In this document: positions 5,335 through 63,040 of the stretch, one piece after another
Layout: every line of letters begins with the position of its first letter
Numbering within the stretch: the first letter of the stretch is position 1
NCBI RefSeq assembly: GCF_044704955.1
Contig: NC_092007.1
Location: forward strand, 4,960,001-5,024,000
Source of the DNA: Pristiophorus japonicus
Lineage: Eukaryota
Reading direction: 5' to 3'
Length of the DNA stretch: 64,000 nucleotides
The notes under the pieces: model-generated
Seen by the model: the letters and a program-made list of their open reading frames with translations, nothing else
Database searches by the model: none
Told to the model about the DNA's origin: nothing
Program-made: the position numbers and the translations under genes

Positions 5335-5502
5335 TCAGTGAAATTTAAGTGCGGCGTATTCAGTGGATTCCTCATTCTTCTGATATCTTTCATGTTTGCG
5401 AACTTTTGACACACTGACAGCTGCGTACACGACCTGATCGCTTTGAGCTGATTGGCTGGGTGGAGCCCCTCTTACACCAATATTTCTGGACTTGTCTTGT
5501 CT
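5335..5502 (-). CDS. Copy A exon 8, terminal cytoplasmic exon with ITIM and ITSM-like motif
   Basis: ttctattacag| acceptor; RQDKSRNIGVRGAPPSQSAQSDQVVYAAVSVSKVRKHERYQKNEESTEYAALKFH*. Confidence 0.88.
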   Translation of the reverse strand, partial: RQDKSRNIGVRGAPPSQSAQSDQVVYAAVSVSKVRKHERYQKNEESTEYAALKFH

Positions 5503-8500
5503 CTGTAATAGAAAGTGGCGCGTTAGATATGGAGGTACTGATCCGGTTGAGAGTGCGTTTCCTGTACCAGAATAACCCGCTTTATTCCATTTCTGCCACC
5601 ATTGTGGTGTTCCTACCTAGCGAGTGAAGTATTTCAACTGCTAATACAATACACATCTTATAGTGACAGAGTAAAGCACTACTGCCCACCGTACTTAATG
5701 GATTACATTTACAATGCATCAGGTAATTGCAGGCAATTATGATTTGTAATAGCAAATGAGTACAACGACATGGCGATCCACTCAGGTGGTGTTTGGAGAA
5801 ATGTTAACCTGGACATGTGGAGACATCTCTGTTCTTCTTCCAAAACTGAATGAGATTCCTAAGAGCCACCTGATTTGCTAGATCAGACAGCCAAGAACTT
5901 GGATAAAGATCCAGTCTGAAAGCACTAGATCCTATAATTCTGTCCTTTCTCAATACTGCACCCCAATCACTCACTAGATGAAGGTACAAAATTTTGCATT
6001 TCCACTCACAATCATCTGTTTCAGATGTGTGCCTCACAATAGCAGCGAAACGAACCCCAGTTTACGGGGGAACATTACACTGAACAAGCCCTTCGGGATA
6101 CTGACTGTATCGGAAGCAACAATGGTTTTACACCCCGCCTAATAATATTCTACATTGAAGTAAGTTCTGCTGGGGTGAAATCCGGCATTCCACACGATCC
6201 CGAGAGTTCCCTGTCCGGCCAATTAATGTTACCTCATCTCTTGGCTCAGATTGAGGCACTTAGTCTCTCCCAAAGGCCAGGCAACAATTTATGTCGCTTT
6301 CGGTTGGGAGTCGGTCGAGATCATGAAATAAGGCTTATTTATTGTAAGACTTAAAATCTCCCCACCCTACTTCCACACAGAAACATAAGAGGTATTACAT
6401 CTTGATAGGAAATAAAGGAAGGTCACTTCTTAATTGGAGGGTGCAAGTCTAGCTGGGTAGAGGAAGAAGGGGTTTTCGAAATACAAATGCTAAAACTTGT
6501 GACACAGTTTAGCAAGGCTGTATACAATATGAAAACAAGAAGTAGGGTTTCTTTCTTGAGGTATTGCATTGAATCGTAAGGCAGTTATGCTGAAATGTAA
6601 CGAACCTTGATCAGCCCAAACTTAGAGTACGATATACAATTCTGGTCGCCGAATTTTAAAAAGGATATAGACGCACTGGAGAGCGCACAGAGAAGATTCA
6701 CAAAGAGGATACCAGAAATGCGAGGTTATACATATCTGGAAAGGATCAACATAAGAACATGAGAACATAAGGAATGCGAGCTGGAATACGTCATTTGGCG
6801 GGTTGAACACATGAAGAGGCAGGGTCCCTTTCGTCTTGAAAAAAGCAGGCTGAGGGGTGACCTAATAGAGGTCTGTACAATTTTGAAAGGCTTTATAGAG
6901 TGGATAGAGAGAGAATGTTTCCACTTGTGGGAAAGACTGGAGGAGGGTCGAGTGGAGCAAAAATGCCATAATGAATCGGTAGGACCGATTGGCCTGTTTC
7001 GGCACCGTATAATTTTTTAATCCTTGTCCAGAAACCTCGCAAGGATCAAAGTTGTCCTGCGATAATGATCGGCATGCAAAATCAAAGGAGGAAAATACAG
7101 ATGATCTTTTGGGCCTTTCATTTCCCTCATATTGATATATCTCGTTGATAATTTATATCCTCGGAACTAATGTCATGGGGGACGTGAGTGTGTGCATTGT
7201 TCTGGTAACTGGGTAATGATACTGGGCCTCGATTGTGTTACGTTGTCTTCGATTTCCAAAGCCATCCCCTACAGTGACAATGTCAACATTTACCAGGACA
7301 TGACCTTTGCATTACATCCAGTTATTGGACTGAGGTGCTCATTCCACACTTGAAAATGCTCTGTGAAACACTTCAATATAGCAAGAGTTGATTCGTCAGA
7401 TTTGCATTTAATATGACTCCCAATGATTGCAAATAGAGCAAGTATCTGGCAGATAACTCAAGCGGATGCTGGGCAATTTCCATATCGTCACTTAACTCAG
7501 TGTCCAACGTGTGCTACACCAGAAACTAACTCACCGTATCGCTGTTGGTTGGGACTACACCAGTGGTATCTCTGGTCTTCTTCCTGATACAAAAAGAATA
7601 CAAATAACGCCCATGTCATAACTGCTTAAAATTGAGTTTAATAAATATTCTGGTGTTCTATATTGAACCATGAACCACACAAGTGGCTAGTGTGGCTATC
7701 ATTTACTTATTACATTGAGAGAATTATGGAACCCTACAATGGTTGCAACAAGGAAGGAGGCCATTCAGCCCGTCGAGCCCGTGCCAGATCTTTAAAAGCG
7801 AATTTCAACTAGTCCCACTCCCCCACTCTGTCCCTGTCCTGCTAGCCCTGCATGTATTTTCCTTCAGGTACTTATCCAACTTCCCTTTGAAAGCCGCAAT
7901 TGAGTCTTCCTCCACATCCCTTTCAGGTAATGCATTCCAGAATATAATCACTCGCTGTGTGAAATCTTTCCCTCATGTCGCATTTGAACCTTTTGACAAA
8001 CAACTTAAATCAGCATCCTCTGGTTCTCGACCCGCCCACCAATGGGAGCAGTTTTCCTTTATCTACTCTTGTCCAACTCCTCGTGATTTTGAACAGCTCT
8101 GTAAAATCTCCTTTCAAATTCTGTAAAGTGGGATTAGGCTAGATAGCTCCTTGTCGGCTGGCGTGGATACAATGTGGCTAAATGGACTCCTTCTGTGCTG
8201 TAAATTTCTATGAATCTATGATTATTTGTTTCTCTTCTCTAAGGAGAACAACCCAACTTCTCCAGTCCTTCCACGTAACTGAAGTCCCGCAATCCTGGAA
8301 CCATTCTTGTAAAATCTTTGCTGCACCGTCTCTAAGGCCTTCACATCCTTCGTAAAGTGCGCTGGCCAGAATTGGACACAATGCTACAGTGGAGGCCGAA
8401 CAAGTGTTTTATAAAGGTTCATCATAACTTCCTTGCTTTTGTATGCTTTGCCTCTATTTATCCGGTGATAGACCGGCACAGGGCAGATTATCCTTCCACA

Positions 8501-11500
8501 ATTCCCTAGTTGCCCCACAGAATCACTTGACCAATTTAATCCTGCCTTTCACAAATCTTATCTGAGCTTCAGAGTCAATGTTTTCACGGTTGATTTATTT
8601 GAAGCAATAGTAGCTCATAGGCAGAAATACTGATGTCACGGAACCTATCAGATCTGCAATTAACACAAGAGTTTAAGTAATTATGAACCACACATACCTC
8701 CGTACCTTCAACGCAATCAGCATCAGCAGGAGAACTGTGACGGCTGCGAGTACTGAGATAGCAATTTTCCAGGGAAATGTTCCTAAAAGTAAAAATTACA
8801 CTGCCGTTCATTATTGCTCGAATAGTACATCATCCTATTAGAATAATTTTATCAGCATGTGTAGGCAAGTTTGATAGAAATTTGCAGCTTAATTGTGAGA
8901 GTCTTACTGTTTCTCTCCTTTCCTAAAACTGTAGGACTCAGCCACACAATCAGATGATGGACTATTTGACAATGAACCCAAATCTAACCCTGCAAATTCT
9001 TATCGTCTTTTATTCATTAATGTGAAATGTTCACTGGACACAGAGCGGGCATCATCTGAACTGATTTCTCCTTCCATAAAAAAGCACAGAATTTATCCTC
9101 ATATTGATCTGTCCCTTGTGTAAATTGTAAATAAATTATTTAAGATTTATTTCCGATAGTTACGTTCCTAAGAGAAAGAAATGCATAGAAACAAACCCCT
9201 GTACACAGCTCAGCCTCGGTCAGACATGTTGAATCATGTCATGCCAATATTTGGTGTTTAATATTATGAGCGGATGAGATAGCGTGGATAGGAAGGACCT
9301 ATTTCCCTTAGCTGAATGGTCAAGAAGCAGGGGGCACAGAATTATAATAATTGGAAGAGGGTTTAGAGAGATGTTGAGAAGCATTTGTTTCATCGAGAGG
9401 GTGGTGGGGGTCTGGAACTCACTGCATGAAATGTTGGTAGAAGCAGAAACCTCACCGCATTTAAAAATACTTGGATCGGCACTTGTAACGATACCGAGAT
9501 CTGGGAATTGCGATTAGGCTGGATGGTTCTTTGTCCACCGGCACAGTCACGATCGGCCGAATAGCCTCCTACTGTGTCCCATTTTTCTATGATTGTAATT
9601 GAGATGTGCTACAAATTATTATCATCGGAAGTTAAGGAACTGGTGACTCCTCTTCATACGATGCACTTTTTGTACTACAAGGGAACCATCCACCTTGAAA
9701 CATGTCATTTAAGTTCTGACTTAACATATGTCTCCAGGTATAACCCAGAGAGTGTATCTATATCCTCACTATACACTCAGACCTGTTCGCTTGCGTTTGG
9801 AAATTTGATGTTATGCTCGAATCTGTTCTTCCAATTATCTCAGATATCGCGACTCTATTTTCACAATGAAACCACATTATTGTTTTCTCAGAGAAAATGC
9901 AGGATACCAATTTCAGTGATAGCATCAACTAATTGCAAGATCTGCACAGTGGAGTTTTATGAACAAGATATAACGGAGCATGTATTAATTGATTGAGAGA
10001 CTGCAGCTGGCTACCATTACAATGTGAGGAAGCAAGACCTCGGAAAGTTTATAATGAATTCAGAAGGTCCCGATTTTTCAAAGAACGCACCTTACCTTTA
10101 CAGTTTAATATTAACCTCTATCTTTCTTTAGAAGCACAGTGCGACAAGAAATGAATGCATACAGTCAGTGATTAAATTTAACATTATTACAACAAAAGTG
10201 AGATGGCAGTCAGTCATGAACCAGACCCTTATGCGACTGAATTTAGCAATGGATTCAGTCCTCAATCATAGATCAGTGAGAGATTATAACGTCAAATGGA
10301 ACTGGATTTTGATGACACTACCTCCACTCGCTTAGTATCTAGCCAGTGATGCAACAAACCAGCGACAGTAATGAAATGGCAGCATATCTCAACACTCACC
10401 TGTTGAATAGAACTGATATTTGCCGACACTAACGCCATGTTCGTTCCCTGCAACACAGGAGAAGTGGTGTCCTGTACCAGTTGGGTTAGTCAGTGTCAGA
10501 GAGCTCTGCACCAGGGAAGTATTCACTGCCTGTGTGGTGACTCCGAGACCTGGCATGTTTCCAGTGATGTTTCTTCCATTGACGCTCCATGTGATGTTTG
10601 CCGGGGGCTTGGCTCTTACACTGCACGTACAATGAAACCCACTCTCAGATGTGGTGCAGGTCGGGCCCCATACCATGGTGGGTTTAACTGAAAAAATAGA
10701 GTGTTCCACTTAAGATCTTTTTAATCATGCAGTTGCATTGTACAAATTGAATCAATTGGCGCTATTTGGAGAAGCATAGGAGTGAATGCAAGGCCGGCAT
10801 TAACAACAATAATAATAACTTGCATTTCAACTTGCATTCCACTCTCCAGTTCTGACGAAAGGTCATCGCTCTGAAACGTTAACTCTGCCTTCTCTGCAAA
10901 GATGCTACCTGACCTGCTGAGATTTCCAGCTTTTCTGATTTTATTCCAGATTGTAGCATCCGCAGTATTTTGCTTTATAAATTTACAATTATATAGCGCC
11001 GCTAACGTCGCAAAAACTCCCAATGAGCTTCAGAAGTTTACAGAAGACTACATCGGATGTATGGCACAAAAACGGTACATTTGGATCCAACACTCCATGC
11101 CTGAGTTAATGTTCCACTCGAGCCGCCTCCCGTCTTTCCTCACCTAAAGCTATCAGCATAACGCTCTATTCCCTTAACCTTCATACGCTTTTTCAACATC
11201 ACTTTACATGCATCTGTTCCATCAGCTTCAACCACTCGCTGTAAAGAAGTTCCTTCTGAATTCCCTATTGCATATATCTTTTTGTCTACCCTATAAAAAC
11301 CTTTCGTCATTTTAAAGATGTCAATTAGATCACTCCTCAGCCTTCTATTTTCAAGTGAAAAAAGACCCCAAAGAGCGTTAGCAAACAACATTTGATACGG
11401 ATCATTCCTGTACCGTTACAAATTTAATTGGCTCACATCACACTTACATTGTACAGAAATCTGTGTGGATCTGTTGGCGGTGCTCAGGTTATTTTCAGCC

Positions 11501-14500
11501 ACGCAATAATACTCGCCGTCATCTTCAGAACTAATGTTGTGAAATGTGTGCTTCAGTTCACCGGTGGATGATCTGCTGATCTCAGTGACAACTCGGACCA
11601 ATGTTAAATTGACGGGCTGGTCACCCAGAGCCCTGCAGTACAATAATAATGAAGTACCCTCCACTATTACGATAGAAGAATTGAAGCTTGGTTTCTCCAG
11701 TGCATCTGAAACACACGAGAGCATTGATGTTATTGGAGAATATCGGAGCAGAAGAGTAAAATCAAGTTGGCAATTGAAGAATAATATTAAAGCCGATATG
11801 GTGGCTATATTGCCAAATCTAAATTTAAAAAGCCAGCCTATGATTGTTGGCGCTATACTGCTTAAGATTATTTCAAATTTAGACCAAATTTATCTCAACG
11901 TTTTATCCTCTTCACTTCAAACGTTTGTAGTGACTGCCTGGACGTGATTCTTTTCCACAAATACATCAATCAAGCGGCCATTCCTCCAACAACAATAACA
12001 GTGGCCTTTCCCATCACTTGAACAGAGCTGTTGAGGCGGATTGCAGGCTCCCGACCACCACCGCTGATAACTCGTCACATACACTTATGTTTCAGATGCT
12101 CTCTCGGTGCAACTATATCAGGAATTAGGAGCCTTTGGAATAACATTTGACATAAGTAGCATCTATGGAGCCTTCCAATGTTACTCCCTGGGTCTTTGTC
12201 AATGTGAAATAATACAACTCACAAGAAATGTTTGATAGTCAGTTCGACCCAATGGTTATAGGAATATATCTTACACTTCGAGTACGTTCCGCTATTCAAT
12301 TAGATCATGGCTCATCCATATGGTAGCTCTGCCTACCCGCCTTTGCTTTATCCTTATTTTTAAAAACTATCCATCACATATGTTGTATATTTAATTATCT
12401 AGGCGAGCTATCACTCCACTGAGCATCAAGACAAGTTTGGATCTTGTTTATCAAAGGATGGTGCAATGCAGGGTACAGCAGATACTTACTTTGAATGTGC
12501 AGTGTGAGAGTTTCTTGAACACTCCCCACGAAACCATCAACGACAAGCTGACATCCCAGCGTTTTCCCATTGTGGTCTGGTGATGGGGTGAAGATGAATG
12601 TTGTTGAAACAGCCCATGATCCCTCCAACCTGTTGTCTCTGTATTTGGAATTTTTAGTCTCTTGCAGCAAACGAACATTATCCTCGTCCTGAATCCACGT
12701 CAGTTCTGGATTGGCGGAGGGGCAGCTGGAGGTGACTGAGCAGGTTAAATGTACGGGCTTTCCAGCAATCAATTCCCCAGGGACTGAAATCCATGACTCA
12801 TCTGTAAGCAGTGAAAGGAATTCGTGTGACTGTGGATTTCAATATAACACATGTGGAGGGAAGGGCCAGGCGGTTCAGTTCAATGTCTGAGATAATACCA
12901 TGAGCAAAAATTTATATGTTTTCCACTTGATCTCTGCTATGGGAAGGAGCCGATTGTTAATTATTACTTACAGTCACAGAATCAATCGATTGATACATGT
13001 GTTCATGAACTTAATGTCCTGCCACAATATGAATGAATTATTCATGTGAGCTTGTTTCTGATCGGTCAGTCACCGCTCTGCAGCACACAATTATTTCAAT
13101 TCAAATTGAGGTCAGAAAAAACAGTCAAAACAGAGTCCCAGATTTGGTTCCTTGAGTGTACCTGCGATATTCTTAGTCCAACGGCTCACTCTCACGTGGA
13201 ACAGTTGATTTAGCCATTGCTTATTTTTATTCTTGCTTTAAATTCATTTTCTCTCATTTAGTCTCGCGATAGGAGTGCCACAACTAACCTTCAGGACGAG
13301 GGACACGCTTAACTAACCTGGATTGTTACTGTTACCAACAGCGGGACAGTGCACAGCTATGAGAAGAAAGCAAGACCAGGTTGCGGGTTCAACACCCATT
13401 TAGGGACTTAAGCACAACCTGTAGCCTGACACTCCAGTGCAGTACTGATGCATTGTCACAATGCCGGAGATTCCATTTTACGGATGAGATATGAACCTGT
13501 TCTCCTAATTTACCTCTCAAGTGTACATAACAGTTCGCGCAGTATTATTTTGAATGGGCCTTTGTCCTCGTTAACTTTGATTGATTGACGCGTTATCTGC
13601 AAGGCTGGTGGATGTTTTAAAAGACATATACAGATGTCCTTCAGCCGTGGTGGGCCGAAGGGCCTCTTAATGTAATGTAAGATTAAATATTTCTATGATT
13701 GTATTTTATAACACACACCTGGATATTATTCAGTGTACCAGCCCTGCAGAGATGGCGTGTGACGTGGGCCAATGTCAACATGAAATCTTTCATTTTAGGC
13801 AAAAAATTGAATGGCATTGGCGAGATGGAACATTAACTACAAAAGCAAAAATTCAAAATAACTTACTTAAAATAGAAATATTGACAGGAGTTTTGGAACC
13901 GTATCCTTCTATCTGATCCTGGGAGTTCATGATCTTCAATATGAAGTAATATTCTCCTCCATCGCTCTCCCTGATGTCCTTTAACCGTAAGGAGCATTGC
14001 TTCTTTATAAAGTCGCCGGCTAACTCTGCCCTCCCTCGATAGTCATGGTGCATATTGTCTGCATCTCTGGAATCATAGATAACCGAGACCCCTGGTGCAT
14101 AAAGATGAGGACTCCCCTTTAACCACATACCCTGTGGATTGCGACCATTCGTGGGATAGTCAAATCTACACGGGATCTTTGCACATGAACCCTTCACCGC
14201 CGATAAACTCCATGGTGTCGTCACAGACCATCGTGAACTACGTACAACTGGTGAAGAAATAGAAATTAAACATCCATTGAAATCCCCAATATGAATACTT
14301 TCCCTCATCGTCAGGTTAAATACTATTACTTTAACCTTTGACGCCCACGAAAACATATTAATGAGTACCTCAATGAAAAGGCGTTAACTTTTAATTAAAA
14401 CTCCTCCAATTCCATTAACTACTCCATTGAAAGTCGGCAAATCAGAAAGTAAATATTAAATCAATATGATAAATACATAAAGAAGTTCTGAATAAAACAT

Positions 14501-14665
14501 ATTAAAAGTGCAATTCACAAATTACTAGTTAAGCATGTACTATATCTATAAAGTAAGAACGTTTTAATTGAACACAAAATGGAAATCGTTTCGAACATCA
14601 ATTAGTAAACTGAACATTTTACCTTTACAGAATATCAGAATGGAGATAAATGTTAAACTCTTCAT
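5335..14665 (-). CDS. Copy A: Siglec/MAG-like Ig-superfamily receptor, inhibitory type (SP-V-C2-C2-C2-TM-ITIM/ITSM-like), 8 coding exons, 527 aa
   Basis: Exons (minus strand): 14623-14665, 13867-14247, 12490-12801, 11448-11705, 10400-10687, 8698-8782, 7535-7583, 5335-5502. All introns are GT-AG with compatible phases (1,1,1,1,1,2,0). Total 1584 nt = 527 aa + stop. Siglec-type cysteine pattern (CAKIPC...QCSL in V; LTCSVTSSCP in D2). Confidence 0.88.
6560..7020 (+). mobile_element. Composite CR1-like fragments
   Basis: LEKSRLRGDLIEVCTILKG remnant. Confidence 0.7.
7535..7583 (-). CDS. Copy A exon 7, juxtamembrane cytoplasmic (KKTRDTTGVVPTNSDT)
   Basis: ttctttttgtatcag| acceptor, ACG|GTGAGT donor; phase 2->0 bridges the TM and terminal exons exactly. 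Confidence 0.75.
7720..8460 (-). mobile_element. CR1-like LINE fragment with a nested + strand CR1 3' tail (~8125-8222)
   Basis: Reverse-complement CR1 ORF2 end interrupted by gtgggattaggct...ctatgaatctatg. Confidence 0.75.
8698..8782 (-). CDS. Copy A exon 6, transmembrane, uncharged core (GTFPWKIAISVLAAVTVLLLMLIALKVRR)
   Basis: tttttacttttag| acceptor, AG|GTATGT donor, phase 1->2; homologous to the TM exons of B-E (WKIA.S). Confidence 0.88.
9255..9595 (+). mobile_element. CR1-like LINE 3' fragment
   Basis: DRKDLFPLAEWSRSRGH..RVVGVWNSL. Confidence 0.8.
10400..10687 (-). CDS. Copy A exon 5, membrane-proximal Ig domain (MAG domain-5-like)
   Basis: ttttttcag| acceptor, G|GTGAGT donor; PTC..GFHCTCSVRAKPPANITW...SSLTL...SCVAGNEHG. 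Confidence 0.92.
10845..10980 (+). mobile_element. Penelope-like element terminal remnant with degenerate hammerhead motif (also ~24425, ~37975, ~51527)
   Basis: CTGACGAAAGG..CTGAAACGTTAACT followed by gatgct.cctgacctgctgag.tttccagc. Confidence 0.55.
11040..11365 (-). mobile_element. CR1-like fragment (one per unit)
   Basis: LFSLENRRLRSDLIDIFKMTKGF. Confidence 0.8.
11448..11705 (-). CDS. Copy A exon 4, Ig domain 3 (C2/I-set)
   Basis: gtgtttcag| acceptor, |GTAAGT donor; EGTSLLLYCRALG...NISSEDDGEYYCVAEN. Confidence 0.92.
12490..12801 (-). CDS. Copy A exon 3, Ig domain 2
   Basis: cttacag| acceptor, |GTAAGT donor; LTCSVTSSCPSANPELTW...FTPSPDHNGKTLGC. Confidence 0.92.
13375..13560 (+). mobile_element. 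Deu-domain SINE (SacSINE1/AmnSINE-like) fragment (one per unit)
   Basis: gggttcaa..gacttaagcaca..ctgacactccagtgcagtactga..cggatgagat; recognised from recall only. Confidence 0.6.
13867..14247 (-). CDS. Copy A exon 2, Siglec-type V-set Ig domain
   Basis: ttcttcaccag| acceptor, |GTAAGT donor; WSVTTP..GSCAKIPCRFDYP..W..YRGRAELAGD..CSLRLKDIRESDGGEYYF. Confidence 0.93.
14623..14665 (-). CDS. Copy A exon 1, signal peptide MKSLTFISILIFCK(V)
   Basis: ccacccATG context, hydrophobic core, AAAG|GTAAAA donor, phase 1 matches the V exon. Confidence 0.8.
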
Positions 14666-21440: not shown

Positions 21441-21549
21441 TTTTATTTTGTTTAAAAAAAACACAGTAAACAGAACTGAAAATATTAGCGATTAATCTGC
21501 GAAATTTGCTCATTTTCACAGAAATTGCAGGCATATGAACTTTAAAATC

Positions 21550-21712
21550 ATTTAACTTTGCAGCATATTAACTGTAATCTTCATTCTTGAGATACCTTTC
21601 ATATTTGTGAAAGTTTCAAACTTCCAGCGATTGGCGCCGGAAACTCGACACTTTGCGCCAATTGGATGGATGCTGTCCATCTGCTAGCAATGTTTCTCTC
21701 CTGGTCTTGGCT
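21550..21712 (-). pseudogene. Decayed homologue of the ITIM/ITSM terminal exon downstream of copy B TM
   Basis: SQDQERNI..AQS aligns with RQDKSRNI..AQS of copy A. The ITIM Tyr is lost and there is a frameshift; the shifted frame reads HKYERYLKNEDYS*YAA versus RKHERYQKNEESTEYAA. Confidence 0.85.
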
Positions 21713-21959
21713 CTGTAACAGAAAGCAGTGCGTTAGAAAAGGGGGTGAGGCCACTTTCTGTCCCAGAATAACCCTCTTTCTCGCTGCTCAGATCATTTTC
21801 AATCTTTCCCTACTCAATGATGGAAACATTCTGAGCGTTGCAACATGCAGGACCTATGAAAAGACGAACACGAAAATAACAGATGCCAAATCGAGCCTAT
21901 CCCAAACAGTCAGGACGCAACAATGCCTCAGGATTGCAACTCTCCCTCTCGGCACCATG

Positions 21960-24900
21960 TCAGCTCTGACTGGTGGGAAATAACGTAATAAAAAAGTACT
22001 GGGTCAATTCAGCAATAAATACATCTGCAAATGTCTTCTCCTACCTCTATGACGAACAAAACGAGTTTCAATTGATAACAATGTCGATGAGGTACATCAC
22101 CTAACAGAGCAACTAAGATTTGCCCGCAATGATATTAGCCCCAGGAGCGGATTCTACCCGTTCCAGTCCAGCAATTCTTGCTCATATGCTGAAATTCTGA
22201 CGACACGTTATTTTGAAATCTCTCTTTATTACCCCACGAGTTGAAGTAATTATTCCCATACCCGTGTAAGTCCATTTCTTTCATCACCAAGACAATGATG
22301 GCAATCAGAATGAGAACGGCAACAGCGTTTCTGATTGACATGGCGATTTTCCAAAATGATCCTGAAAATATTCAACAACAAAAAACACGCTCTTCATTAT
22401 TGCTCTGATTAACCCAGGTTTCTCGATAGCATTTAACAACATGTATGGGACTATTAAGATAGAAATCAACTCACATTTATTTAGTGCTTTTCCCAACCTC
22501 GCAACCCACTTTACAGCCAATGAAGTACGATGGAAGTTTATTCACTGTTGCACTGCAGGTAACGTGGCAGCTGTATTGCGCATAGAATGCTCCCACAAAC
22601 AGCGATGAGATAAATAAGCAGATAATCTCTTTCAGTATTACTGGTTGAGGGATAAATAATTGCCAAGGCATCGGAAAGCGCTGCACCTGCTCGTCTTCAA
22701 TCGATTCAGTATTACAGCATCCCTTAGAAAATGCAGCTATCCACATCGCATACTCGAATCTGCTCCTCCGTTATCCGATATCTTAATTCAGTCCATAAGT
22801 TGTGTTTAAAGTTAATCTGCGCCAATTGTCAGTATTTTGACACGTGATAGTTTGCTCAGAATATCAATAAAACTGACATTCGGCTAAAAAAACTGCGTGA
22901 AAATAAATTGAACTGAGCATTTGTAAATTGAATGATGGACTGTGCCCCACTAATGTTACAGTGAGCGCAAATATGGTTTCATAGAGTGTGTCACTAATTC
23001 AGAAAGTTCTGTTTTTTATAAACGATGACACATTCCTTCTAGTGTTTTATATTACACTTTCTATCTTCGTTAAAAAAGGCGACAATAATCAAATTCAGAA
23101 GACCAGAATATAAACTTGACGGGGATTATTCTCATCTGAATTTCGCGAGCAGCATGAACCAGAGCCAAACACTACTAAAATTAAGAATGGTATACGTCCT
23201 AAATTGCAAATAATCAGAGAAAAATACAACATTACTGCATAGGAGGAGGACATTCGGCCCATCATGTTCCTGCCGGCCAATTTAGCATTATCCAGCCTAA
23301 TTCCATTTTCAAGCTCATCGTCATATCCAACTAAATGCTATGGGAGAGTGTGCCTCTAAAGTCTTTCTGGCGGTGATTTGCAGAGCACGACCATCCTCTG
23401 GTGAAAGCATATCATCTCAAATCCCCTCTAATCCTTCTACAAATTACTTGAAATAAGTATGGTATTACGGACTCAGTGGAATTATTGCCTTCTCAGGGAT
23501 ACTCTGAAATAGCTGCAAGCCCTCCGTAGTTAAGCTGTGTGGCCAAGTTAAATCTGAGCATCGATCAAGTGATTGAGAGCCTGCAGCTCACTACCATTAC
23601 AATGAAAGGAAACCAGACGTCATAAAGTCTCCGATCAATTCAGAAGGTCTCGCTTGTTTAACGATCATACGCTACCTTTACTGTTTAATGTTAACCCCTT
23701 CCTCTCATCACAAGCACAGTGCGACCATAACTTAATTCAGAAAATCAGTGATTAAATTTTACATTTTTCCAACAATTTTAAGATAGCAGACAGTCACTAA
23801 CCAGACAATTACTCTACTGAAATTAGCAATGGATTCAGTCCTCAATCATAGATCAGTAAGTTAATACAAGCTCAAATGGAACTGATATTTGCTGACACTA
23901 ATTCTGTTCACTTAGTATCGGGCCAATGATGGAATAAACCAGCTATTTTAATCAAATTGCAGCAAATCTCAACACTCACCTGTTGAACAGATCTGATATT
24001 TGCCGACACTAACACCGTGTTCGTTCCATGCAACACAGGAGATATGGTGTCCTGTACCGGTTGGGTGGGTCAGTGTCAGATAGCTCTGCACCAGGGAATT
24101 ATTCATTGACCGGGTGGTGACTCCGAGACCTGGCATGTTTCTAGTGATGTTTCTTCCATTGACGCTCCAGGTGATGTTTGCCGGGGGCTTGGCTCTTACA
24201 CTGCAGGTACAATGAAACCCACTCTCAAATCTGGTGCAGGTCGGGCCCCATACTATGGTGGGTTTAACTGAAAAAATAGACAGTTCCACTTAAGATGATT
24301 TTAATCATGCAGTTGCATTGTTTAAGTTAAACCAATTGGCGCTATTTGGAGAAGCACAGGAGTGAACACAAAGCCCGGCATTACCAATAAAAAAACTTGC
24401 ATTTCAACTTGCATTCCAATCTCCAGTTCTGATGAAAGGTCCGCGGCCCGAATCGTTAACTCTGCCTTCTTTGCACAGATGCTGCCTGACCTGCTGAGTT
24501 TTGCAGCATTTTCAGATTTTATTCCAGATTCTAGCATCCGCAGTTTTTTGCTTTTTTTAATTTGCATTAATATAGCGCCGCTAACGTGGCAAAAATTCCC
24601 AATGAGCTTCAAAAGTTCACAGAAGACTACATCGGAAGTTTGGCACAGAAACGGTACAGTTGGCTCAACCACTCCATGCCTGAGTTAATGCTCCACTCGA
24701 GCATCCTCCCGTCTTTCCTCATCTAAAGCTATCAGCATAACGCTCTATTCCCTTCTCCCTCATACGCTTTTTCAACATCACTTTACATGCATCTGTTCAA
24801 TCAGCTTCAACCACTCGCTGTAAAGAAGTTCCTTCTGAATTCCCTCTGGGATATATCTTTTTGTCTACCCTATAAAAACCTTTCGTCATTTTAAAGATGT

Positions 24901-27900
24901 CAATTAGATCACTCCTCAGCCTTCTATTTTCAAGTGAAAAAAGACCCCAAAGAGCGTTAGCAAACAACATTTGATACGGATCATTCCTGTACCGTTACAA
25001 ATTTAATTGGCTCACATCACACTTACATTGTACAGAAATCTGTGTGGATCTGTTGGCGGTGCTCAGGTTATTTTCAGCCACGCAATAATACTCGCCGTCA
25101 TCTTCAGAACTAATGTTGTGAAATGTGTGCTTCAGTTCACCGGTGGATGATCTGCTGATCTCAGTGACAACTCGGACCAATGTTAAATTGACGGGCTGGT
25201 CACCCAGAGCCCTGCAGTACAATAATAATGAAGTGCCCTCCACTATTACGATAGAAGAATTGAAGCTTGGTTTCTCCAGTGCATCTGAAACACACGAGAG
25301 CATTGGTGTTATTGGAGAATATCGGAGCAGAAGAGTAAAGTCAATTTGGCAATTGAAGAATAATATTAAAGCCGATATGGTGGCTATATTGCCAAATCTA
25401 AATTTAAAAAGCCAGCCTATGATTGTTGGCGCTGTACTGCTTAAGATTATTTCAAATTTAGACCAAATTTATCTCAACGTTTTATCCTCTTCACTTCAAA
25501 CGTTTGTAGTGACTGCCTGGACGTGATTCTTTTCCACAGAAACATCAATCAAGCGGCCATTCCTCCAACAACAAGAACAGTGGCCTTTCTCATCACTTGA
25601 ACAGAGCTGTTGAGGCGGATTGCAGGCTCCCGACCACCACCGCTGATAACTCGTCACATACACTTATGTTTCAGATGCTCTCTCGGTGCAACTATATCAG
25701 GAATTAGGAGCCTTTGGAATAACATTTGACATAAGTAGCATCTATGGAGCCTTCCAATGTTACTCCCTGGGTCTTTGTCAATGTGAAATAATACAACTCA
25801 CAAGAAATGTTTGATAGTCAGTTCGACCCAATGGTTATAGGAATATATCTTACACTTCGAGTACGTTCCGCTATTCAATTAGATCATGGCTCATCCATAT
25901 GGTAGCTCTGCCTACCCGCTTTTGCTTTATTCTTATTTTTAAAAACTATCCATCACATATGTTGTATATTTAATTATCTCGGCGAGCTATCACTCCACTG
26001 AGCATCAAGACAAGTTTGGATCCTGTTTATCAAAGGATGATGCAATGCAGGGTACAGCAGATACTTACTTTGAATGTGCAGTGTGAGAGTTTCTTGAACA
26101 CTCCCCTCGACACCATCAACGACAAGCTGACATCCCAGCTTTTTCCCATTGTGGTCTGGTGATGGGGTGAAGATGAATGTTGTTGAAATAGCCCATGATC
26201 CCTCCAACCTGTTGTCTCTGTATTTGGAATTTTTAGTCTCTTGCAGCAAACGAACATTATCCTCGTCCTGAATCCACGTCAGTTTTGGATTGGCGGAGGG
26301 GCAGCTGGAGGTGACTGAGCAGGTTAAATATACGGGCTTTCCAGCAATCAATTCCCCAGGGACTGAAATCCATGACTTATGTGTAAGCAGTGAAAGGAAT
26401 TCGTGTGACTGTGGATTTCAATATAACACATGTGGAGGGAAGGGCCAGGCGGTTCAGTTCAATGTCTGAGATAATACCATGAGCAAAAATTTATATGTTT
26501 TCCACTTGATCTCTGCTATGGGAAGGAGCCGATTGTTAATTATTACTTACGGTCACAGAATCAATCGATTGATGCATGTGTTCATGAACTTAATGTCCTG
26601 CCACAATATGAATGAATTATTCATGTGGGCTTGTTTCTGATCGGTCAGTCACCGCTCTGCAGCACACAATTATTTCAATTCAAATTAAGGTCAGAAAAAA
26701 CATTCAAAACAGAGTCCGAGATTTGGTTCCTTGAGTATACCTGGGATATTCTTAGTCCAACGGCTCACTCTCACGTGGAACAGTTGATTTAGCCATTGCT
26801 TATTTTTATTCTTGCTTTTAATTCATTTTCTCTCATTTAGTCTCGCGATAGGAGTGCCACAACTAACCTTCAGGACGAGGGACACGCTTAACAAACCTGG
26901 TTTGTTACTGTTACCAACAGCGGGACAGTGCACAGCTATGAGAAGAAAGCAAGACCAGGTTGCGGGTTCAAGACCCATTTCAGAGACTTAAGCACAACCT
27001 GTAGCCTGACACTCCAGTGCAGTACTGATGCATTGTCACAATGCCGGAGATTCCATTTTACGGATGAGATATTAACCTGTTCTCCTAATTTACCTCTCAA
27101 GTGTACATAACAGTTCGCACAGTATTATTTTGAATGAGCCTTTGTCCTCGTTAACTTTGATTGATCGACGCGTTATCTGCAAGGCTGGTGGATGTTTTAA
27201 AAGACAAATACAGATGTCCTTCAGCCGTGGTGGGCCGAAGGGCCTCTTAATGTAATGTAAGATTAAATATTTCTATGATTGTATTTTATAACACACACCT
27301 GGATATTATTCAGTGTACCAGCCCTGCAGAGATGGCGTGTGACGTGGGCCAATGTCAACATGAAATCTTTCATTTTAGGCAAAAATTGAATGGCATTGGC
27401 GAGATGGAACATTAACTACAAAACGAAAAATTCAAAATAACTTACTTAAAATAGAAAGATTGACAGGAGTTTTGGAACCGTATCCTTCTATCTGATCCTG
27501 GGAGTTCATGATCTTCAATATGAAGTAATATTCTCCTCCATCGCTCTCCCTGATGTCCTTTAACCGTAAGGAGCATTGCTTCTTTATAAAGTCGCCGGCT
27601 AACTCTGCCCTCCCTCGATAGTCATGGTGCATATTGTCTGCATCTCTGGAATCATAGATAACCGAGACCCCTGGTGCATAAAGATGAGGACTCCCCTTTA
27701 ACCACATACCCTGTGGATTGCGACCATTCGTGGGATAGTCAAATCTACACGGGATCTTTGCACATGAACCCTTCACCGTCGATAAACTCCATGGTGTCGT
27801 CACAGACCATCGTGAACTACGTACAACTGGTGAAGAAATAGAAATTAAACATCCATTGAAATCCCCAATATGAATACTTTCCCTCATCGTCAGGTTAAAT

Positions 27901-28244
27901 AATATTACTTTAACCTTTGACGCCCACGAAAACATATTAATGAGTACCTCAATGAAAAGGCGTTAAATTTTAATTAAAACTCCTCCAATTCCATTAACTA
28001 CTCCATTGAAAGCCGGCAAATCAGAAAGTAAATATTAAATCAATATGATAAATACATAAAGAAGTTCTGAATAAAACATATTAAAAGTGCAAATCACAAA
28101 TTACTAGTTAAGCATGTACTATCTCTATAAAGTAAGAACGTTTTAATTGAACACAAAATGGAAATCGTTTCGAACATCAATTAGTAAACTGAACATTTTA
28201 CCTTTACAGAATATCAGAATGGAGATAAATGTTAAACTCTTCAT
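21960..28244 (-). CDS. Copy B: Siglec-like receptor, activating type (TM Arg, short tail); D2 acceptor mutated
   Basis: Exons: 28202-28244 (SP), 27446-27826 (V), 26069-26380 (D2, acceptor AG->AC), 25027-25284 (D3), 23980-24267 (D4), 22262-22361 (TM: GSFWKIAMSIRNAVAVLILIAIIVLVMKEMDLHG). Probable last coding bit 21960-21969 (GQS*). The 3' end is uncertain. Confidence 0.75.
22262..22361 (-). CDS. Copy B transmembrane exon with Arg
   Basis: atattttcag| acceptor, GG|GTATGG donor, phase 1->2 as in copy A. Confidence 0.85.
22470..22730 (-). mobile_element. Deu-domain SINE 3' part (one per unit)
   Basis: cactttacagccaatgaagtac..cccacaaacagc..ggttgagggataaat; recognised from recall only. Confidence 0.6.
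23980..24267 (-). CDS. Copy B membrane-proximal Ig exon
   Basis: GT-AG intact; 14 aa differences from copy A. Confidence 0.9.
25027..25284 (-). CDS. Copy B Ig domain 3 exon
   Basis: Protein identical to copy A; GT-AG intact. Confidence 0.9.
26069..26380 (-). CDS. Copy B Ig domain 2 exon (canonical acceptor lost)
   Basis: Open frame; acceptor reads cttacac instead of cttacag. Confidence 0.75.
27446..27826 (-). CDS. Copy B V-set exon
   Basis: Same splice sites as copy A; 2 aa differences. Confidence 0.9.
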
Positions 28245-35109: not shown

Positions 35110-35273
35110 CATTTAAATTTGCAGCATATTAACTGTAATCTTCATTCTTGAGATACCTTTCATATTTGTGAAAGTTTCAAACTTCCAGCGATTGCCGCCG
35201 GAACCTCTACACTTTGCGCCGATTGGATGGATGCTGTCCATCTGCTAGCAATGTTTCTCTCCTGGTCTTGGCT
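35110..35273 (-). pseudogene. Decayed ITIM-exon relic, copy C
   Basis: Same lesions as 21550-21712. Confidence 0.8.
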
Positions 35274-35520
35274 CTGTAACAGAAAGCAGTGCGTTAGAAA
35301 AGGGTGTGAGGCCACTTTCTGTCCCAGAATAACCCTCTTTCTCGCTGCCCAGATCATTTTCAATCTTTCCCTACTCAATGATGGAAACATTCTGAGCGTT
35401 GCAACATGCAGGACCAATGAAAAGACGAACACGAAAATAACAGATGCCCCATCGAGCCAATCCCAAACAGTCAGGACGCAACAATGCCTCAGGATTGCAA
35501 CTCTCCCTCTCGGCACCATG

Positions 35521-38500
35521 TCAGCTCTGACTGGTGAGAAATAACGTAATAAAAAAGTACTGGGTCAATTCAGCAATAAATACATCTGCAAATGTCTTCT
35601 CCTACCTCTATGACGAACAAAACGAGTTTCAATTGATAACAATGTCGATGAGGTACATCACCTAACAGAGCAACTAAGATTTGCCCGCAATGATATTAGC
35701 CCCAGGAGCGGATTCTACCCGTTCCAGTCCAGCAATTCTTGCTCATATGCTGAAATTCTGACGACACGTTATTTTGAAATCTCTCTTTATTACCCCACGA
35801 GTTGCAGTAATTATTCCCATACCCGTGTGAGTCTATTTCTTTCATCACCAAGACAATGATGGCAATCAGAATGAGAACGGCAGCAGCGGTTCTGATTGAC
35901 ATGGCGATTTTCCAAAATGATCCTGAAAATATTCAACAACAAAAAACACGCTCTTCATTATTGCTCTGATTAACCCAGGTTTCTCGATAGCATTTAACAA
36001 CATGTATGGGACTATTAAGATAGAAATCAACTCACATTTATTTAGTGCTTTTCCCAACCTCGCAACCCACTTTACAGCCAATGAAGTACGATGGAAGTTT
36101 ATTCACTGTTGCACTGTAGGTAACGTGGCAGCTGTATTGCGCATAGCATGCTCCCACAAACAGCGATGAGATAAATAAGCAGATAATCTCTTTCAGTATT
36201 ACTGGTTGAGGGATAAATAATTGCCAAGGCATCGGAGAAGGATCCGCCTGCTCGTCTTCAATCGATTCAGTATTACAGCATCCCTTAGAAAATGCAGCTA
36301 TACATATCGCATACTCGAATCTGCTCCTCCGTTATCCGATATCTTAATTCAGTCCATAAGTTGCGTTTAAAGTTATTCTGCGCCAATTGTCAGTATTTTG
36401 ACACGTGATAGTTTGCTCAGAATATCAATAAAACTGACATTCGGCTGAAAAAACTGCGTGAAAATAAATTGAACTGAGCATTTGTAAATTGAATGATGGA
36501 CTGTGTCCCACTAATGTTACAGTGAGCGCAAATATGGTTTCATAGAGTGTGTCACTAATTCAGAAAATTCTGTTTTATAAACGATGACACATTCCTTCTA
36601 GTGTTTTATATTACACTTTCTATCTTCGTTAAAAAAGGCGACAATAATCAAATTCAGAAGACCAAAATATAAACTTGACGGGGATTATTCTCATCTGAAT
36701 TTCGCGAGCAGCATGAACCAGAGCCAAACACTACTAAAATTAAGAATGGTATACGTCCTAAATTGCAAATAATCAGAGAAAAATACAACATTACTGCATA
36801 GGAGGAGGACATTCGGCCCATCATGTTCCTGCCGGCCAATTTAGCATTATCCAGCCTAATTCCATTTTCAAGCTCATCGTCATATCCAACTAAATGCTAT
36901 GGGAGAGTGTGCCTCTAAATTCTTTCGGGCGGTGATTTGCAGAGCACGACCATCCTCTGGTGAAAGCATATCATCTCAAATCCCCTCTAATCCTTCTACA
37001 AATTACTTTAAATAAGTATGGTATTACGGACTCAGTGGAATTATTGCCTTCTCAGGGATACTCTGAAATAGCTGCAAGCCCTCCGGAGTGAAGCTGTGTG
37101 GCAAAGTTAAATCTGAGCATCGATCAAGTGATTGAGAGCCTGCAGCTCACTACCATTACAATGAAAGGAAACCAGACGTCATAAAGTCTCCGATTAATTC
37201 AGAAGGACTCGCTTGTTTAACGATCATACGCTACCTTTACTGTTTAATGTTAACCCCTTCCTCTCTTCACAAGCACAGTGCGACCATAACTTAATTCAGA
37301 AAATCAGTGATTACATTTTACATTTTTCCAACAATTTTAAGATAGCAGACAGTCACTAACCAGACAATTACTCTACTGAAATTAGCAATGGATTCAGTCC
37401 TCAATCATAGATCAGTAAGTTAATACAAGCTCAAATGGAACTGATATTTGCTGACACTAATTCTGTTCACTTAGTATCGGGCCAATGATGGAATAAACCA
37501 GCTATTTTAATCAAATTGCAGCAAATCTCAACACTCACCTGTTGAACAGATCTGATATTTGCCGACACTAACACCGTGTTCGTTCCATGCAACACAGGAG
37601 ATATGGTGTCCTGTACCGGTTGGGTGGGTCAGTGTCAGAGAGCTCTGCACTAGGGAATTATTCATTGACCGGGCGGTGACTCCGAGACCTGGCATGTTTC
37701 CAGTGATGTTTCTTCCATTGACGTTTGCCGGGGGCTTGGCTCTTACACTGCAGGTACAATGAAACCCACTCTCAAATCTGGTGCAGGTCGGGCCCCATAC
37801 TATGGTGGGTTTAACTGAAAAAATAGAGAGTTCCACTTAAGATGATTTTAATCATGCAGTTGCATTGTTTAAGTTAAACCAATTGGCGCTATTTGGAGAA
37901 GCACAGGAGTGAACAAAAAGCCCGGCATTACCAATAAAAATAACTTGCATTTCAACTTGCATTCCAATCTCCAGTTCTGATGAAAGGTCCGCGGCCCGAA
38001 TCGTTAACTCTGCCTTCTTTGCACAGATGCTGCCTGACCTGCTGAGTTTTCCAGCAATTTCAGATTTTATTCCAGATTCTAGCATCCGCAGTTTTTTGCT
38101 TTTTTTAATTTGCATTAATATAGCGCCGCTAACGTGGCAAAAATTCCCAATGAGCTTCAAAAGTTCACAGAAGACTACATCGGAAGTTTGGCACAGAAAC
38201 GGTACAGTTGGCTCAACCACTCAATGTCTGAGTTAATGCTCCACTCGAGCCTCCTCCCGTCTTTCCTCATCTAAAGCTATCAGCATAACGCTCTATTCCC
38301 TTCTCCCTCATACGCTTTTTCAACATCACTTTACATGCATCTGTTCAATCAGCTTCAACCACTCGCTGTAAAGAAGTTCCTTCTGAATTCTCTCTGGGAT
38401 ATATCTTTTTGTCTACCCTATAAAAACCTTTCGTCATTTTAAAGATGTCAATTAGATCACTCCTCAGCCTTCTATTTTCAAGTGAAAAAAGACCCCAAAG

Positions 38501-41500
38501 AGCGTTAGCAAACAACATTTGATACGGATCATTCCTGTACCGTTACAAATGTAATTGGCTCACATCACACTGACATTGTACAGAAATCTGTGTGGATCTG
38601 TTGGCGGTGCTCAGGTTATTTTCAGCCACGCAATAATACTCGCCGTCATCTTCAGAACTAATGTTGTGAAATGTGTGCTTCAGTTCACCGGTGGATGATC
38701 TGCTGATCTCAGTGACAACTCGGACCAATGTTAAATTGACGGGCTGGTCACCCAGAGCCCTGCAGTACAATAATAATGAAGTGCCCTCCACTATTACGAT
38801 AGAAGAATTGAAGCTTGGTTTCTCCAGTGCATCTGAAACACACGAGAGCATTGGTGTTATTGGAGAATATCGGAGCAGAAGAGTAAAGTCAATTTGGCAA
38901 TTGAAGAATAATATTAAAGCCGATATGGTGGCTATATTGCCAAATCTAAATTTAAAAAGCCAGCCTATGATTGTTGGCGCTGTACTGCTTAAGATTATTT
39001 CAAATTTAGACCAAATTTATCTCAACGTTTTATCCTCTTCACTTCAAACGTTTGTAGTGACTGCCTGGACGTGATTCTTTTCCACAGAAACATCAATCAA
39101 GCGGCCATTCCTCCAACAACAAGAACAGTGGCCTTTCTCATCACTTGAACAGAGCTGTTGAGGCGGATTGCAGGCTCCCGACCACCACCGCTGATAACTC
39201 GTCACATACACTTATGTTTCAGATGCTCTCTCGGTGCAACTATATCAGGAATTAGGAGCCTTTGGAATAACATTTGACATAAGTAGCATCTATGGAGCCT
39301 TCCAATGTTACTCCCTGGGTCTTTGTCAATGTGAAATAATACAACTCACAAGAAATGTTTGATAGTCAGTTCGACCCAATGGTTATAGGAATATATCTTA
39401 CACTTCGAGTACGTTCCGCTATTCAATTAGATCATGGCTCATCCATATGGTAGCTCTGCCTACCCGCTTTTGCTTTATTCTTATTTTTAAAAACTATCCA
39501 TCACATATGTTGTATATTTAATTATCTCGGCGAGCTATCACTCCACTGAGCATCAAGACAAGTTTGGATCCTGTTTATCAAAGGATGATGCAATGCAGGG
39601 TACAGCAGATACTTACTTTGAATGTGCAGTGTGAGAGTTTCTTGAACACTCCCCTCGACACCATCAACGACAAGCTGACATCCCAGCTTTTTCCCATTGT
39701 GGTCTGGTGATGGGGTGAAGATGAATGTTGTTGAAATAGCCCATGATCCCTCCAACCTGTTGTCTCTGTATTTGGAATTTTTAGTCTCTTGCAGCAAACG
39801 AACATTATCCTCGTCCTGAATCCACGTCAGTTCTGGATTGGCGGAGGGGCAGCTGGAGGTGACTGAGCAGGTTAAATATACGGGCTTTCCAGCAATCAAT
39901 TCCCCAGGGACTGAAATCCATGACTTATGTGTAAGCAGTGAAAGGAATTCGTGTGACTGTGGATTTCAATATAACACATGTGGAGGGAAGGGCCAGGCGG
40001 TTCAGTTCAATGTCTGAGATAATACCATGAGCAAAAATTTATATGTTTTCCACTTGATCTCTGCTATGGGAAGGAGCCGATTGTTAATTATTACTTACGG
40101 TCACAGAATCAATCGATTGATGCATGTGTTCATGAACTTAATGTCCTGCCACAATATGAATGAATTATTCATGTGGGCTTGTTTCTGATCGGTCAGTCAC
40201 CGCTCTGCAGCACACAATTATTTCAATTCAAATTAAGGTCAGAAAAAACATTCAAAACAGAGTCCGAGATTTGGTTCCTTGAGTATACCTGGGATATTCT
40301 TAGTCCAACGGCTCACTCTCACGTGGAACAGTTGATTTAGCCATTGCTTATTTTTATTCTTGCTTTTAATTCATTTTCTCTCATTTAGTCTCGCGATAGG
40401 AGTGCCACAACTAACCTTCAGGACGAGGGACACGCTTAACAAACCTGGTTTGTTACTGTTACCAACAGCGGGACAGTGCACAGCTATGAGAAGAAAGCAA
40501 GACCAGGTTGCGGGTTCAAGACCCATTTCAGAGACTTAAGCACAACCTGTAGCCTGACACTCCAGTGCAGTACTGATGCATTGTCACAATGCCGGAGATT
40601 CCATTTTACGGATGAGATATTAACCTGTTCTCCTAATTTACCTCTCAAGTGTACATAACAGTTCGCACAGTATTATTTTGAATGAGCCTTTGTCCTCGTT
40701 AACTTTGATTGATCGACGCGTTATCTGCAAGGCTGGTGGATGTTTTAAAAGACAAATACAGATGTCCTTCAGCCGTGGTGGGCCGAAGGGCCTCTTAATG
40801 TAATGTAAGATTAAATATTTCTATGATTGTATTTTATAACACACACCTGGATATTATTCAGTGTACCAGCCCTGCAGAGATGGCGTGTGACGTGGGCCAA
40901 TGTCAACATGAAATCTTTCATTTTAGGCAAAAATTGAATGGCATTGGCGAGATGGAACATTAACTACAAAACGAAAAATTCAAAATAACTTACTTAAAAT
41001 AGAAAGATTGACAGGAGTTTTGGAACCGTATCCTTCTATCTGATCCTGGGAGTTCATGATCTTCAATATGAAGTAATATTCTCCTCCATCGCTCTCCCTG
41101 ATGTCCTTTAACCGTAAGGAGCATTGCTTCTTTATAAAGTCGCCGGCTAACTCTGCCCTCCCTCGATAGTCATGGTGCATATTGTCTGCATCTCTGGAAT
41201 CATAGATAACCGAGACCCCTGGTGCATAAAGATGAGGACTCCCCTTTAACCACATACCCTGTGGATTGCGACCATTCGTGGGATAGTCAAATCTACACGG
41301 GATCTTTGCACATGAACCCTTCACCGTCGATAAACTCCATGGTGTCGTCACAGACCATCGTGAACTACGTACAACTGGTGAAGAAATAGAAATTAAACAT
41401 CCATTGAAATCCCCAATATGAATACTTTCCCTCATCGTCAGGTTAAATAATATTACTTTAACCTTTGACGCCCACGAAAACATATTAATGAGTACCTCAA

Positions 41501-41792
41501 TGAAAAGGCGTTAAATTTTAATTAAAACTCCTCCAATTCCATTAACTACTCCATTGAAAGCCGGCAAATCAGAAAGTAAATATTAAATCAATATGATAAA
41601 TACATAAAGAAGTTCTGAATAAAACATATTAAAAGTGCAAATCACAAATTACTAGTTAAGCATGTACTATCTCTATAAAGTAAGAACGTTTTAATTGAAC
41701 ACAAAATGGAAATCGTTTCGAACATCAATTAGTAAACTGAACATTTTACCTTTACAGAATATCAGAATGGAGATAAATGTTAAACTCTTCAT
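35521..41792 (-). CDS. Copy C: Siglec-like activating-type receptor, possibly impaired (D2 acceptor AC, 12-nt deletion in D4)
   Basis: Exons: 41750-41792, 40994-41374, 39617-39928, 38575-38832, 37539-37814, 35823-35922 (TM SIRTAAAVLILIAIIVLVMKE); probable stop exon 35521-35530. Confidence 0.65.
35823..35922 (-). CDS. Copy C transmembrane exon with Arg
   Basis: Same splice sites as copy B. Confidence 0.85.
37539..37814 (-). CDS. Copy C membrane-proximal Ig exon (ITWS deleted)
   Basis: 276 nt versus 288 nt in the other copies; in-frame. Confidence 0.85.
38575..38832 (-). CDS. Copy C Ig domain 3 exon
   Basis: Open frame; donor GTCAGT. Confidence 0.85.
39617..39928 (-). CDS. Copy C Ig domain 2 exon (canonical acceptor lost)
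   Basis: Open frame; acceptor AG->AC at 39929. Confidence 0.75.
40994..41374 (-). CDS. Copy C V-set exon
   Basis: Identical protein to copy B. Confidence 0.9.
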
Positions 41793-48657: not shown

Positions 48658-48821
48658 CATTTAAATTTGCAGCATATTAACTGTAATCTTCATTCTTGAG
48701 ATACCTTTCATATTTGTGAAAGTTTCAAACTTCCAGCGATTGCCGCCGGAACCTCTACACTTTGCGCCGATTGGATGGATGCTGTCCATCTGCTAGCAAT
48801 GTTTCTCTCCTGGTCTTGGCT
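48658..48821 (-). pseudogene. Decayed ITIM-exon relic, copy D
   Basis: Same lesions as 21550-21712. Confidence 0.8.
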
Positions 48822-62229: not shown

Positions 62230-62392
62230 ATTTAAATTTGCAGCATATTAACTGTAATCTTCATTCTTGAGACACCTTTCATATTTGTGAAAGTTTCAAA
62301 CTTCCAGCGATTGCCGCCGGAACCTCGACACTTTGCGCTGATTGGAAAGATGCTGTCCATCTGCGAGCAATGTTTCTCTCCTGGTCTTGGCT
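62230..62392 (-). pseudogene. Decayed ITIM-exon relic, copy E
   Basis: Homologous to 21550-21712. Confidence 0.78.
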
Positions 62393-62940: not shown

Positions 62941-63040
62941 CCGTGTGAGTCTATTTCTTTCATCACCAAGACAATGATGGCAATCAGAATGAGAACGGCA
63001 GCAGCGGTTCTGATTGACATGGCGATTTTCCAAAATGATC
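62941..63040 (-). CDS. Copy E transmembrane exon with Arg (ectodomain exons lie beyond the window end)
   Basis: GSFWKIAMSIRTAAAVLILIAIIVLVMKEIDSHG, same splice sites; probable stop exon 62639-62648. Confidence 0.8.

Follow-up and report, generated by a model that had tools for sequence, protein, structure and literature searches.

The window analysed here, 64,000 nucleotides (64 kb) of the Pristiophorus japonicus genome, harbours a shark Siglec-like paired-receptor cluster, composed of one ITIM gene (A) and four genes whose membrane exon encodes an arginine (Arg-type genes, B to E). Each lies on the minus strand and includes a leader, one V and three C2-type exons, and an exon for the membrane segment. 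The features are the following.

5338..5502, minus: gene A last exon, open, with the motifs VVYAAV and TEYAAL
7490..7534, minus: second fossil, in gene A, with 13 former middle-exon codons (7496-7534) and a dead donor TTAAGT (7490-7495)
7535..7583, minus: gene A middle cytoplasmic exon, shortened, with a putatively used in-frame GTGAGT donor at its end
8698..8782, minus: gene A membrane exon, 85 nt, uncharged hydrophobic stretch
10400..14665, minus: gene A leader, V and three C2-type exons (14623-14665, 13867-14247, 12490-12801, 11448-11705, 10400-10687)
21442..21447, minus: AATAAA, candidate poly(A) signal (weak evidence)
21550..21712, minus: gene B relic, last cytoplasmic exon; proximal ITIM Tyr lost, net +1 shift, two stops, distal Tyr codon intact, +3 Leu lost
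21713..21779, minus: gene B relic-side intron end, homologous to that of A; intact AG, pyrimidine tract 12/17, branch-point motif at -24 as in A
22262..22361, minus: membrane exon of gene B (100 nt), with its Arg close to the outer end of the hydrophobic stretch; its phase-2 donor, GTATGG, has its homologue in A
23980..28244, minus: gene B leader, V and three C2-type exons (28202-28244, 27446-27826, 26069-26380, 25027-25284, 23980-24267)
35111..35273, minus: gene C relic exon
35823..35922, minus: gene C Arg-type membrane exon
37539..41792, minus: gene C ectodomain exons
48659..48821, minus: gene D relic exon
49371..49470, minus: gene D Arg-type membrane exon
51081..55346, minus: gene D ectodomain exons, all open, with AG/GT sites
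62230..62392, minus: gene E relic exon
62941..63040, minus: gene E Arg-type membrane exon (ectodomain beyond the window)

Siglec-like genes in a tandem array

The encoded proteins have the architecture of Siglecs, with an N-terminal V-set domain followed by C2-type domains in a type I membrane protein. Pfam assigns the V exon to V-set and Ig_CD22 and the other Ig exons to C2-set_2/Ig, and the best PDB matches of the V plus first C2 domains are MAG, sialoadhesin, Siglec-7/8 and CD33. Alignment with MAG also revealed the Siglec cysteine pattern in the V domain (two early Cys and one later) and the first C2 domain (an extra Cys), with the disulfides predicted. The essential V-domain arginine, described as important in Siglecs in the accessible part of PMC13358205, is absent. 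All four V exons encode Ile (ATA) at the sialoadhesin Arg column (13942, 27521, 41069 and 54623, minus strand), a state common to the inhibitory and the Arg-type genes, and for this reason the family is named Siglec-like and not Siglec. A loss of sialic-acid binding would be predicted from it. Among 15 related V domains, 8 keep the arginine at this column, and the two nearest ones, from Heptranchias, are among these. The closest proteins are shark models annotated as 'MAG-like/Siglec-like', led by Heptranchias (63-68% in the last Ig domain, vs 57-60% for the others), to which the source shark is thus probably the nearer. A literature search over listings and the main text of a few papers, with most subscription journals outside its range, brought up no study of the shark Siglec-like family.

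A 13.55-kb tandem unit is present in about four copies from 9.9 kb of the window onward. Units 2 and 3 are 99.8% identical: of 13,547 positions 24 differ, and almost all of these fall within the first 1.5 kb. Their near-identity spans about 11.7 kb (25150-36830 vs 38700-50380), the mark of either a very recent duplication or an assembly artefact. Units 2 or 3 and unit 4 are about 98.5% identical. Above 11.3 kb unit 1 matches the others at about 98.5%; the figure is about 90% between 10.4 and 11.2 kb and about 74% between 9.9 and 10.3 kb. Around the last Ig exon (9900-11250 vs 23480-24830) the identity of A and B changes in steps, from about 99% to about 90% and then about 74%, which suggests conversion tracts of different ages. 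The first three Ig exons of B to D, the three whole copies, are 98-99.6% identical to those of A. Differences between A and B amount to 0/43 nt in the leader and to 7/312, 1/258 and 22/288 nt in the C2 exons; in the V exon, A and each of B to D are apart by 2 of 381 nt. Such close linkage of genes whose ectodomains are nearly the same is typical of paired receptors.

Several splice sites and one domain are damaged in the Arg-type genes. The first C2 acceptor in genes B and C is AC and not AG (26381 and 39929, minus strand), where the frame could be restored either by in-frame skipping of the exon or by use of an AG located 18 nt downstream. In the last C2 exon of gene C (37539-37814, minus strand) a 12-nt deletion takes out the conserved Trp, and the second C2 donor in genes C and D is GTCAGT instead of GTAAGT. 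Given the acceptors of B and C and the missing Trp of C, some of the genes B to E may be non-functional. Reverse-transcriptase-like repeat fragments, which we take to be of the CR1/LINE type, fill the introns (21073-21438, 7734-8118, 4131-4644 and 15194-15685); one of them begins just past the AATAAA of the gene B relic, with repeat homology from 21438.

Gene A has the properties of an inhibitory member, namely an uncharged membrane segment and the motifs VVYAAV and TEYAAL, in a last exon that is putatively spliced on in frame. This exon is open throughout and shares 63% identity with the tail of a Heptranchias protein. The middle exon aligns with Heptranchias up to the exon end; VS*FLV*HTLDTE is the reading of its last 13 codons, and the two stops stand at positions that are Tyr and Gln in the relatives. 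The GTGAGT donor 39 nt upstream preserves the frame. Together, the stops, the dead TTAAGT donor, the in-frame upstream donor and the open last exon indicate that A probably intronised its own first, membrane-proximal ITIM.

Genes B to E encode an arginine in all four membrane exons, located near the edge of the most hydrophobic 19 residues. On the basis of this residue, a basic one as in the activating members of paired receptors, they are labelled as likely activating, via putative coupling to an ITAM adaptor. The edge position of the arginine counts against this reading. Regarding candidate adaptors, and also as a point against, the accessible text of a 2014 survey reports that the FcR gamma chain was not found in draft shark genomes (PMC4016189), and cd247 is present in the bamboo shark according to the part of PMC11372145 available.

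The decayed ITIM exon and the tail of B to E

The first-pass annotation of this DNA had proposed that a fossil ITIM exon lies behind every activating copy. Pairwise alignment of the 3' end of A (5250-5600) with 21480-21800 (minus strand) bears out the homology, with 196 of 308 columns identical (71% ungapped, about 290 nt) and a score of 156.5; the 300 doublet shuffles gave a mean of 23.4 and a maximum of 37.5, and none reached the observed score. With blastn the match is 68% over 190 nt (E 3e-13); the last exon of A, run as a query against proteins, had no hit in 5 candidates at E 0.01. Collinearity between A and B takes in the rest of the 3' end as well, including the intron after the last Ig exon (76%, 0/30 shuffles as high), the membrane exon with its flanks (74%, 0/300 shuffles as high) and the first 85 nt of the intron after the membrane exon (75%). 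The further relics placed at about 35110, 48658 and 62230 were recovered as well, so that the exon is present behind all four Arg-membrane genes, with starts at 21712, 35273, 48821 and 62392 (B to E) and an intact AG before each. However, these copies are not independent. The four relics differ among themselves at 0-11 of 331 nt and lie in one recently amplified 13.55-kb unit, and therefore represent one event.

The relic has lost the ITIM of its inhibitory counterpart. The replacement of DQVVYAAV by VEFPAPIA, described earlier for the ITIM codons, is found in B only, whereas C to E read VEVPAAIA. The frameshift is also present, but its net +1 falls inside the ITIM segment (28 nt vs 27) and not after it. 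In all four copies the TAA at 21568-21570 stands directly before the intact distal Tyr codon, as had been noted, and a second stop in the same frame, TGA at 21616-21618, had been missed. A further 1-nt insertion, likewise overlooked before, turns YAAL into YAAK/YAAN, with the distal Tyr codon intact and the +3 leucine gone. The differences of the relic by codon position are 13/12/16, an even spread as expected without coding constraint. The exon thus has marks of an ITIM pseudoexon of the CHIR2A kind, being homologous to the ITIM exon of the partner gene, with broken motifs and free of coding constraint; its intact splice signals suggest that part of it is translated, out of frame.

Two adaptive readings of this decay were considered and rejected. 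Targeted destruction of the ITIM codons was suggested by an alignment with one gap (11/27 identical vs 94/135 in the flanks, p 0.007), but the signal is not robust, since with two gaps C to E have 13/24 identical (p 0.16) and B gives p 0.03. Selection for two in-frame stops is unsupported, as neutral simulation yields at least two stops in 8-16% of the runs.

Three tyrosine motifs, one in the middle exon, an ITIM in the last exon and a distal one, are present in relatives of the inhibitory type from Heptranchias, Heterodontus, Carcharodon, Mustelus and two species of Scyliorhinus, and deeper paralogues possess two or three of these motifs. Exceptions are the protein models P0002, without the middle Tyr in both halves, P0005, which ends before the distal motif, and P0027 and P0066, without the middle motif. 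Because these outgroups carry tyrosine motifs, the polarity from inhibitory to activating holds, and the ancestor would have been an inhibitory receptor with three tyrosine motifs. The earlier proposal that the Arg-type lineage derives from an inhibitory ancestor is supported by the homology of the A and B 3' ends, by the tyrosine motifs of shark orthologues and deeper paralogues, and by the even codon-position differences. Its companion claim, that both tyrosine motifs were disabled, stands in so far as the motifs are lost; nonetheless, the ancestral tail had three, and these need not have been disabled singly, because loss of the middle exon would by itself change the reading frame.

No trace of the middle tail exon was detected in the 549-nt intron of B (191/300 shuffles scored as high), and no homologue in its other neighbouring intron (72/100 shuffles as high). 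Loss of the middle exon removes the first motif and, given a phase-2 end of the membrane exon and a phase-0 start of the last one, puts the rest out of frame. Genes B to E keep the homologous donor, the acceptor AG, the pyrimidine tract and the branch-point motif at -24; the 26 nt upstream of the relic are identical to A at 21 positions, and the exon body is 70% identical. A direct splice from membrane exon to relic, computed for the four copies, gives tails of 32 residues (B and E) or 22 residues (C and D), all tyrosine-free. The +1 insertion in the old ITIM returns the distal part to the frame of this direct splice, and both stops fall in that frame. No splice into the relic can restore the distal motif, since the TAA abuts the distal Tyr codon, and no ITIM was found in the direct splice, in read-through or in the 12 acceptor options examined in B from DNA.

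The best explanation of the whole, to which we assign a probability of about 0.6 from the DNA sequence, is that a decayed ITIM last exon lies behind a likely activating Arg membrane exon and probably continues to be joined to the transcript by splicing as its terminal exon, with an out-of-frame, tyrosine-free reading. The proposed course would start with the duplication of an inhibitory gene, one duplicate of which would gain the membrane arginine and lose the middle exon (88 nt in its ancestral extent in A). This loss would remove the first ITIM and shift the last exon, leaving a tail of 22-32 residues without tyrosine, after which the last exon would drift. Within each lineage, gene conversion or unequal crossing-over would have held the ligand-binding exons in step with those of the inhibitory partner, and recent amplification of one 13.55-kb unit would have produced B to E.

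The relic had instead been placed in the 3' UTR, with the AATAAA at 21442-21447 (minus strand) as poly(A) signal. The hexamer is present; however, AWTAAA occurs 245 times on both strands of the 64 kb, about once per 520 nt, which makes it weak evidence. A pure UTR is not required either, since the two ancestral splice sites are still in place and a direct splice would bring 21-31 codons of the relic into translation, out of frame. It is possible but doubtful that the relic, with the same ancestry, is wholly 3' UTR, with translation ending earlier by read-through of the donor or at a new intron acceptor. Read-through would give an open 42-residue tail in all four copies, and the Mustelus model ends three residues past the membrane-exon end, as if its donor were read through. 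Translation would end after three residues if splicing used the acceptor at 21969, which has a good pyrimidine tract, and the 549-nt intron of B contains eleven AG sites with a comparable tract besides the ancestral acceptor. Nevertheless, the read-through frame has an AATAAA (22225-22230) ahead of its stop, and the ancestral donor, the branch point and the AG have all been preserved next to an exon body with 70% identity, which is suggestive only.

Age of the Arg-type membrane exon

Among 162 proteins, 38 match the last Ig domain, and two of these possess the same Arg-type membrane exon, Cetorhinus XP_078392811.1 (P0008) and Mustelus P0016, the other sharks being compared through protein models only. 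Similar to B, both have 34 residues (29 in A), a lost proline, the Ile-Arg position and an acidic/His extension. A membrane-exon tree of 21 rows unites the four Arg rows in a single group (99/99), which persists when the Arg is masked and the extension cut (92/92); these trees have 27-33 columns, with P0066 and P0027 included and P0107 left out. In the Ig tree, which contains one mis-cut row (P0066) and is without P0027, each Arg row pairs with the local inhibitory gene (99/99, 98/97 and 100/100), and monophyly of the Arg rows is rejected (p-AU 7e-63). The Ig domains hence group by species and the membrane exons by type, as in concerted evolution. On these trees this is the paired-receptor pattern of an apparently old signalling exon with refreshed ectodomains.

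As the Arg-type exon also occurs in the basking shark and the smooth-hound, the inhibitory-activating switch is likely old. The lineages of a Heptranchias-like shark, the basking shark and the smooth-hound split over 200 million years ago. We lean, by a small measure, towards one activating Siglec-like signalling exon having been kept since before that split and refitted in each lineage with the local ligand-binding exons, with the ITIM fossil still as its terminal exon. If true, this would be a long-lived activating lineage, contrary to the short-lived view derived from KIR and Ly49.

The age of the relic itself is left unsettled by the last-exon tree (13 rows), in which it falls weakly beside A (54/87), its nearest match (52% over 42 columns). 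This position agrees more with a later exchange than with a fossil that goes back as far as the Arg exon, and the relic may date such an exchange with the inhibitory gene and not the first conversion. It is nonetheless quite unlikely that later recombination or gene conversion put part of the local inhibitory 3' end behind the Arg exon, making the relic younger than the conversion. Conversion is evident in the ectodomain, and the start of the membrane exon of B is closer to that of A than the Cetorhinus or Mustelus one is; but the support is weak, a grouping of A with Heptranchias to the exclusion of the relic is not rejected (p-AU 0.11), and relic, membrane exon and introns are alike in their divergence from A (71-76%), as from one old split. 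The damage described above, with the AC acceptors in B and C, the Trp deletion in C and the weakened donor in C and D, would also agree with genes B to E being tail-less decoys or decaying pseudogenes, not activating, and with the arginine as an interface residue. This is improbable considering that three shark lineages retain both the arginine and the exon length of 34 residues, that gene D is fully open with canonical sites, and that the architecture fits the paired receptors described in the accessible portions of PMC13358205 and PMC10679719. Improbable too is a partial assembly duplication of units 2 and 3, which would lower the real copy number. Their few differences, crowded in the first 1.5 kb, would fit it; the other unit pairs, on the other hand, differ at about 200 or more positions, so that at least three distinct tails exist, and the relic is unaffected.

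Comparison with known paired receptors

The concept of an ITIM relic is not new, being documented in chicken and primates. According to the available part of PMC1458963, the chicken gene CHIR2A belongs to a system with ITIM pseudoexons 6 and 7 behind activating genes, from which inhibitory ancestry was argued. The shark locus resembles it in the decayed ITIM exons behind activating genes, the inhibitory-ancestor argument and the block duplications. In the same partial text, the chicken receptors are C2-only members of the bird LRC with several independent conversions, whereas the shark family is V-plus-C2 and Siglec-like, with one apparently old Arg exon.

In macaque KIR3DH the ITIMs were lost through a frameshift caused by omission of a tail exon (PMC2213150, accessible sections). 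Similar to rhesus KIR3DH and the hominoid short-tailed KIR of that text, the shark genes combine a charged membrane residue with ITIM loss, and recombination refits the ectodomains. However, KIR3DH leaves exon 8 unexpressed, whereas the middle exon of shark B is undetectable in the DNA. The accessible sections also describe activating receptors as short-lived, with no activating KIR going back further than about 18 million years and no activating Ly49 further than about 31; by comparison, the shark Arg exon is common to several shark lineages.

Like Siglec-5/14 and Siglec-11/16, as far as the excerpts of PMC5701461 and PMC13358205 go, the shark locus pairs an ITIM gene with a putatively adaptor-coupled type of gene, with Siglec-type ectodomains homogenised by gene conversion. 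Those pairs are mammalian and CD33-related, and all four shark V domains are without the essential arginine. LILRA-type receptors likewise possess a membrane arginine and a short tail opposite ITIM-bearing paralogues; in the part of PMC10679719 available their ectodomain is C2-only and coupling to FcR gamma is shown, whereas in the sharks coupling is only predicted.

If our reading holds, Siglec-type paired receptors extend to cartilaginous fish, and a single exon loss suffices to silence three tyrosine motifs. The activating lineage would then be much older than the 18-31 million years of KIR and Ly49, and which ITAM adaptor serves the shark arginine receptors becomes directly testable.

Separately from the Arg-type genes, the protein model P0041 possesses a lysine mid-way in an inhibitory-type membrane segment and a short, tyrosine-free tail, and is possibly a second, independent activating conversion.
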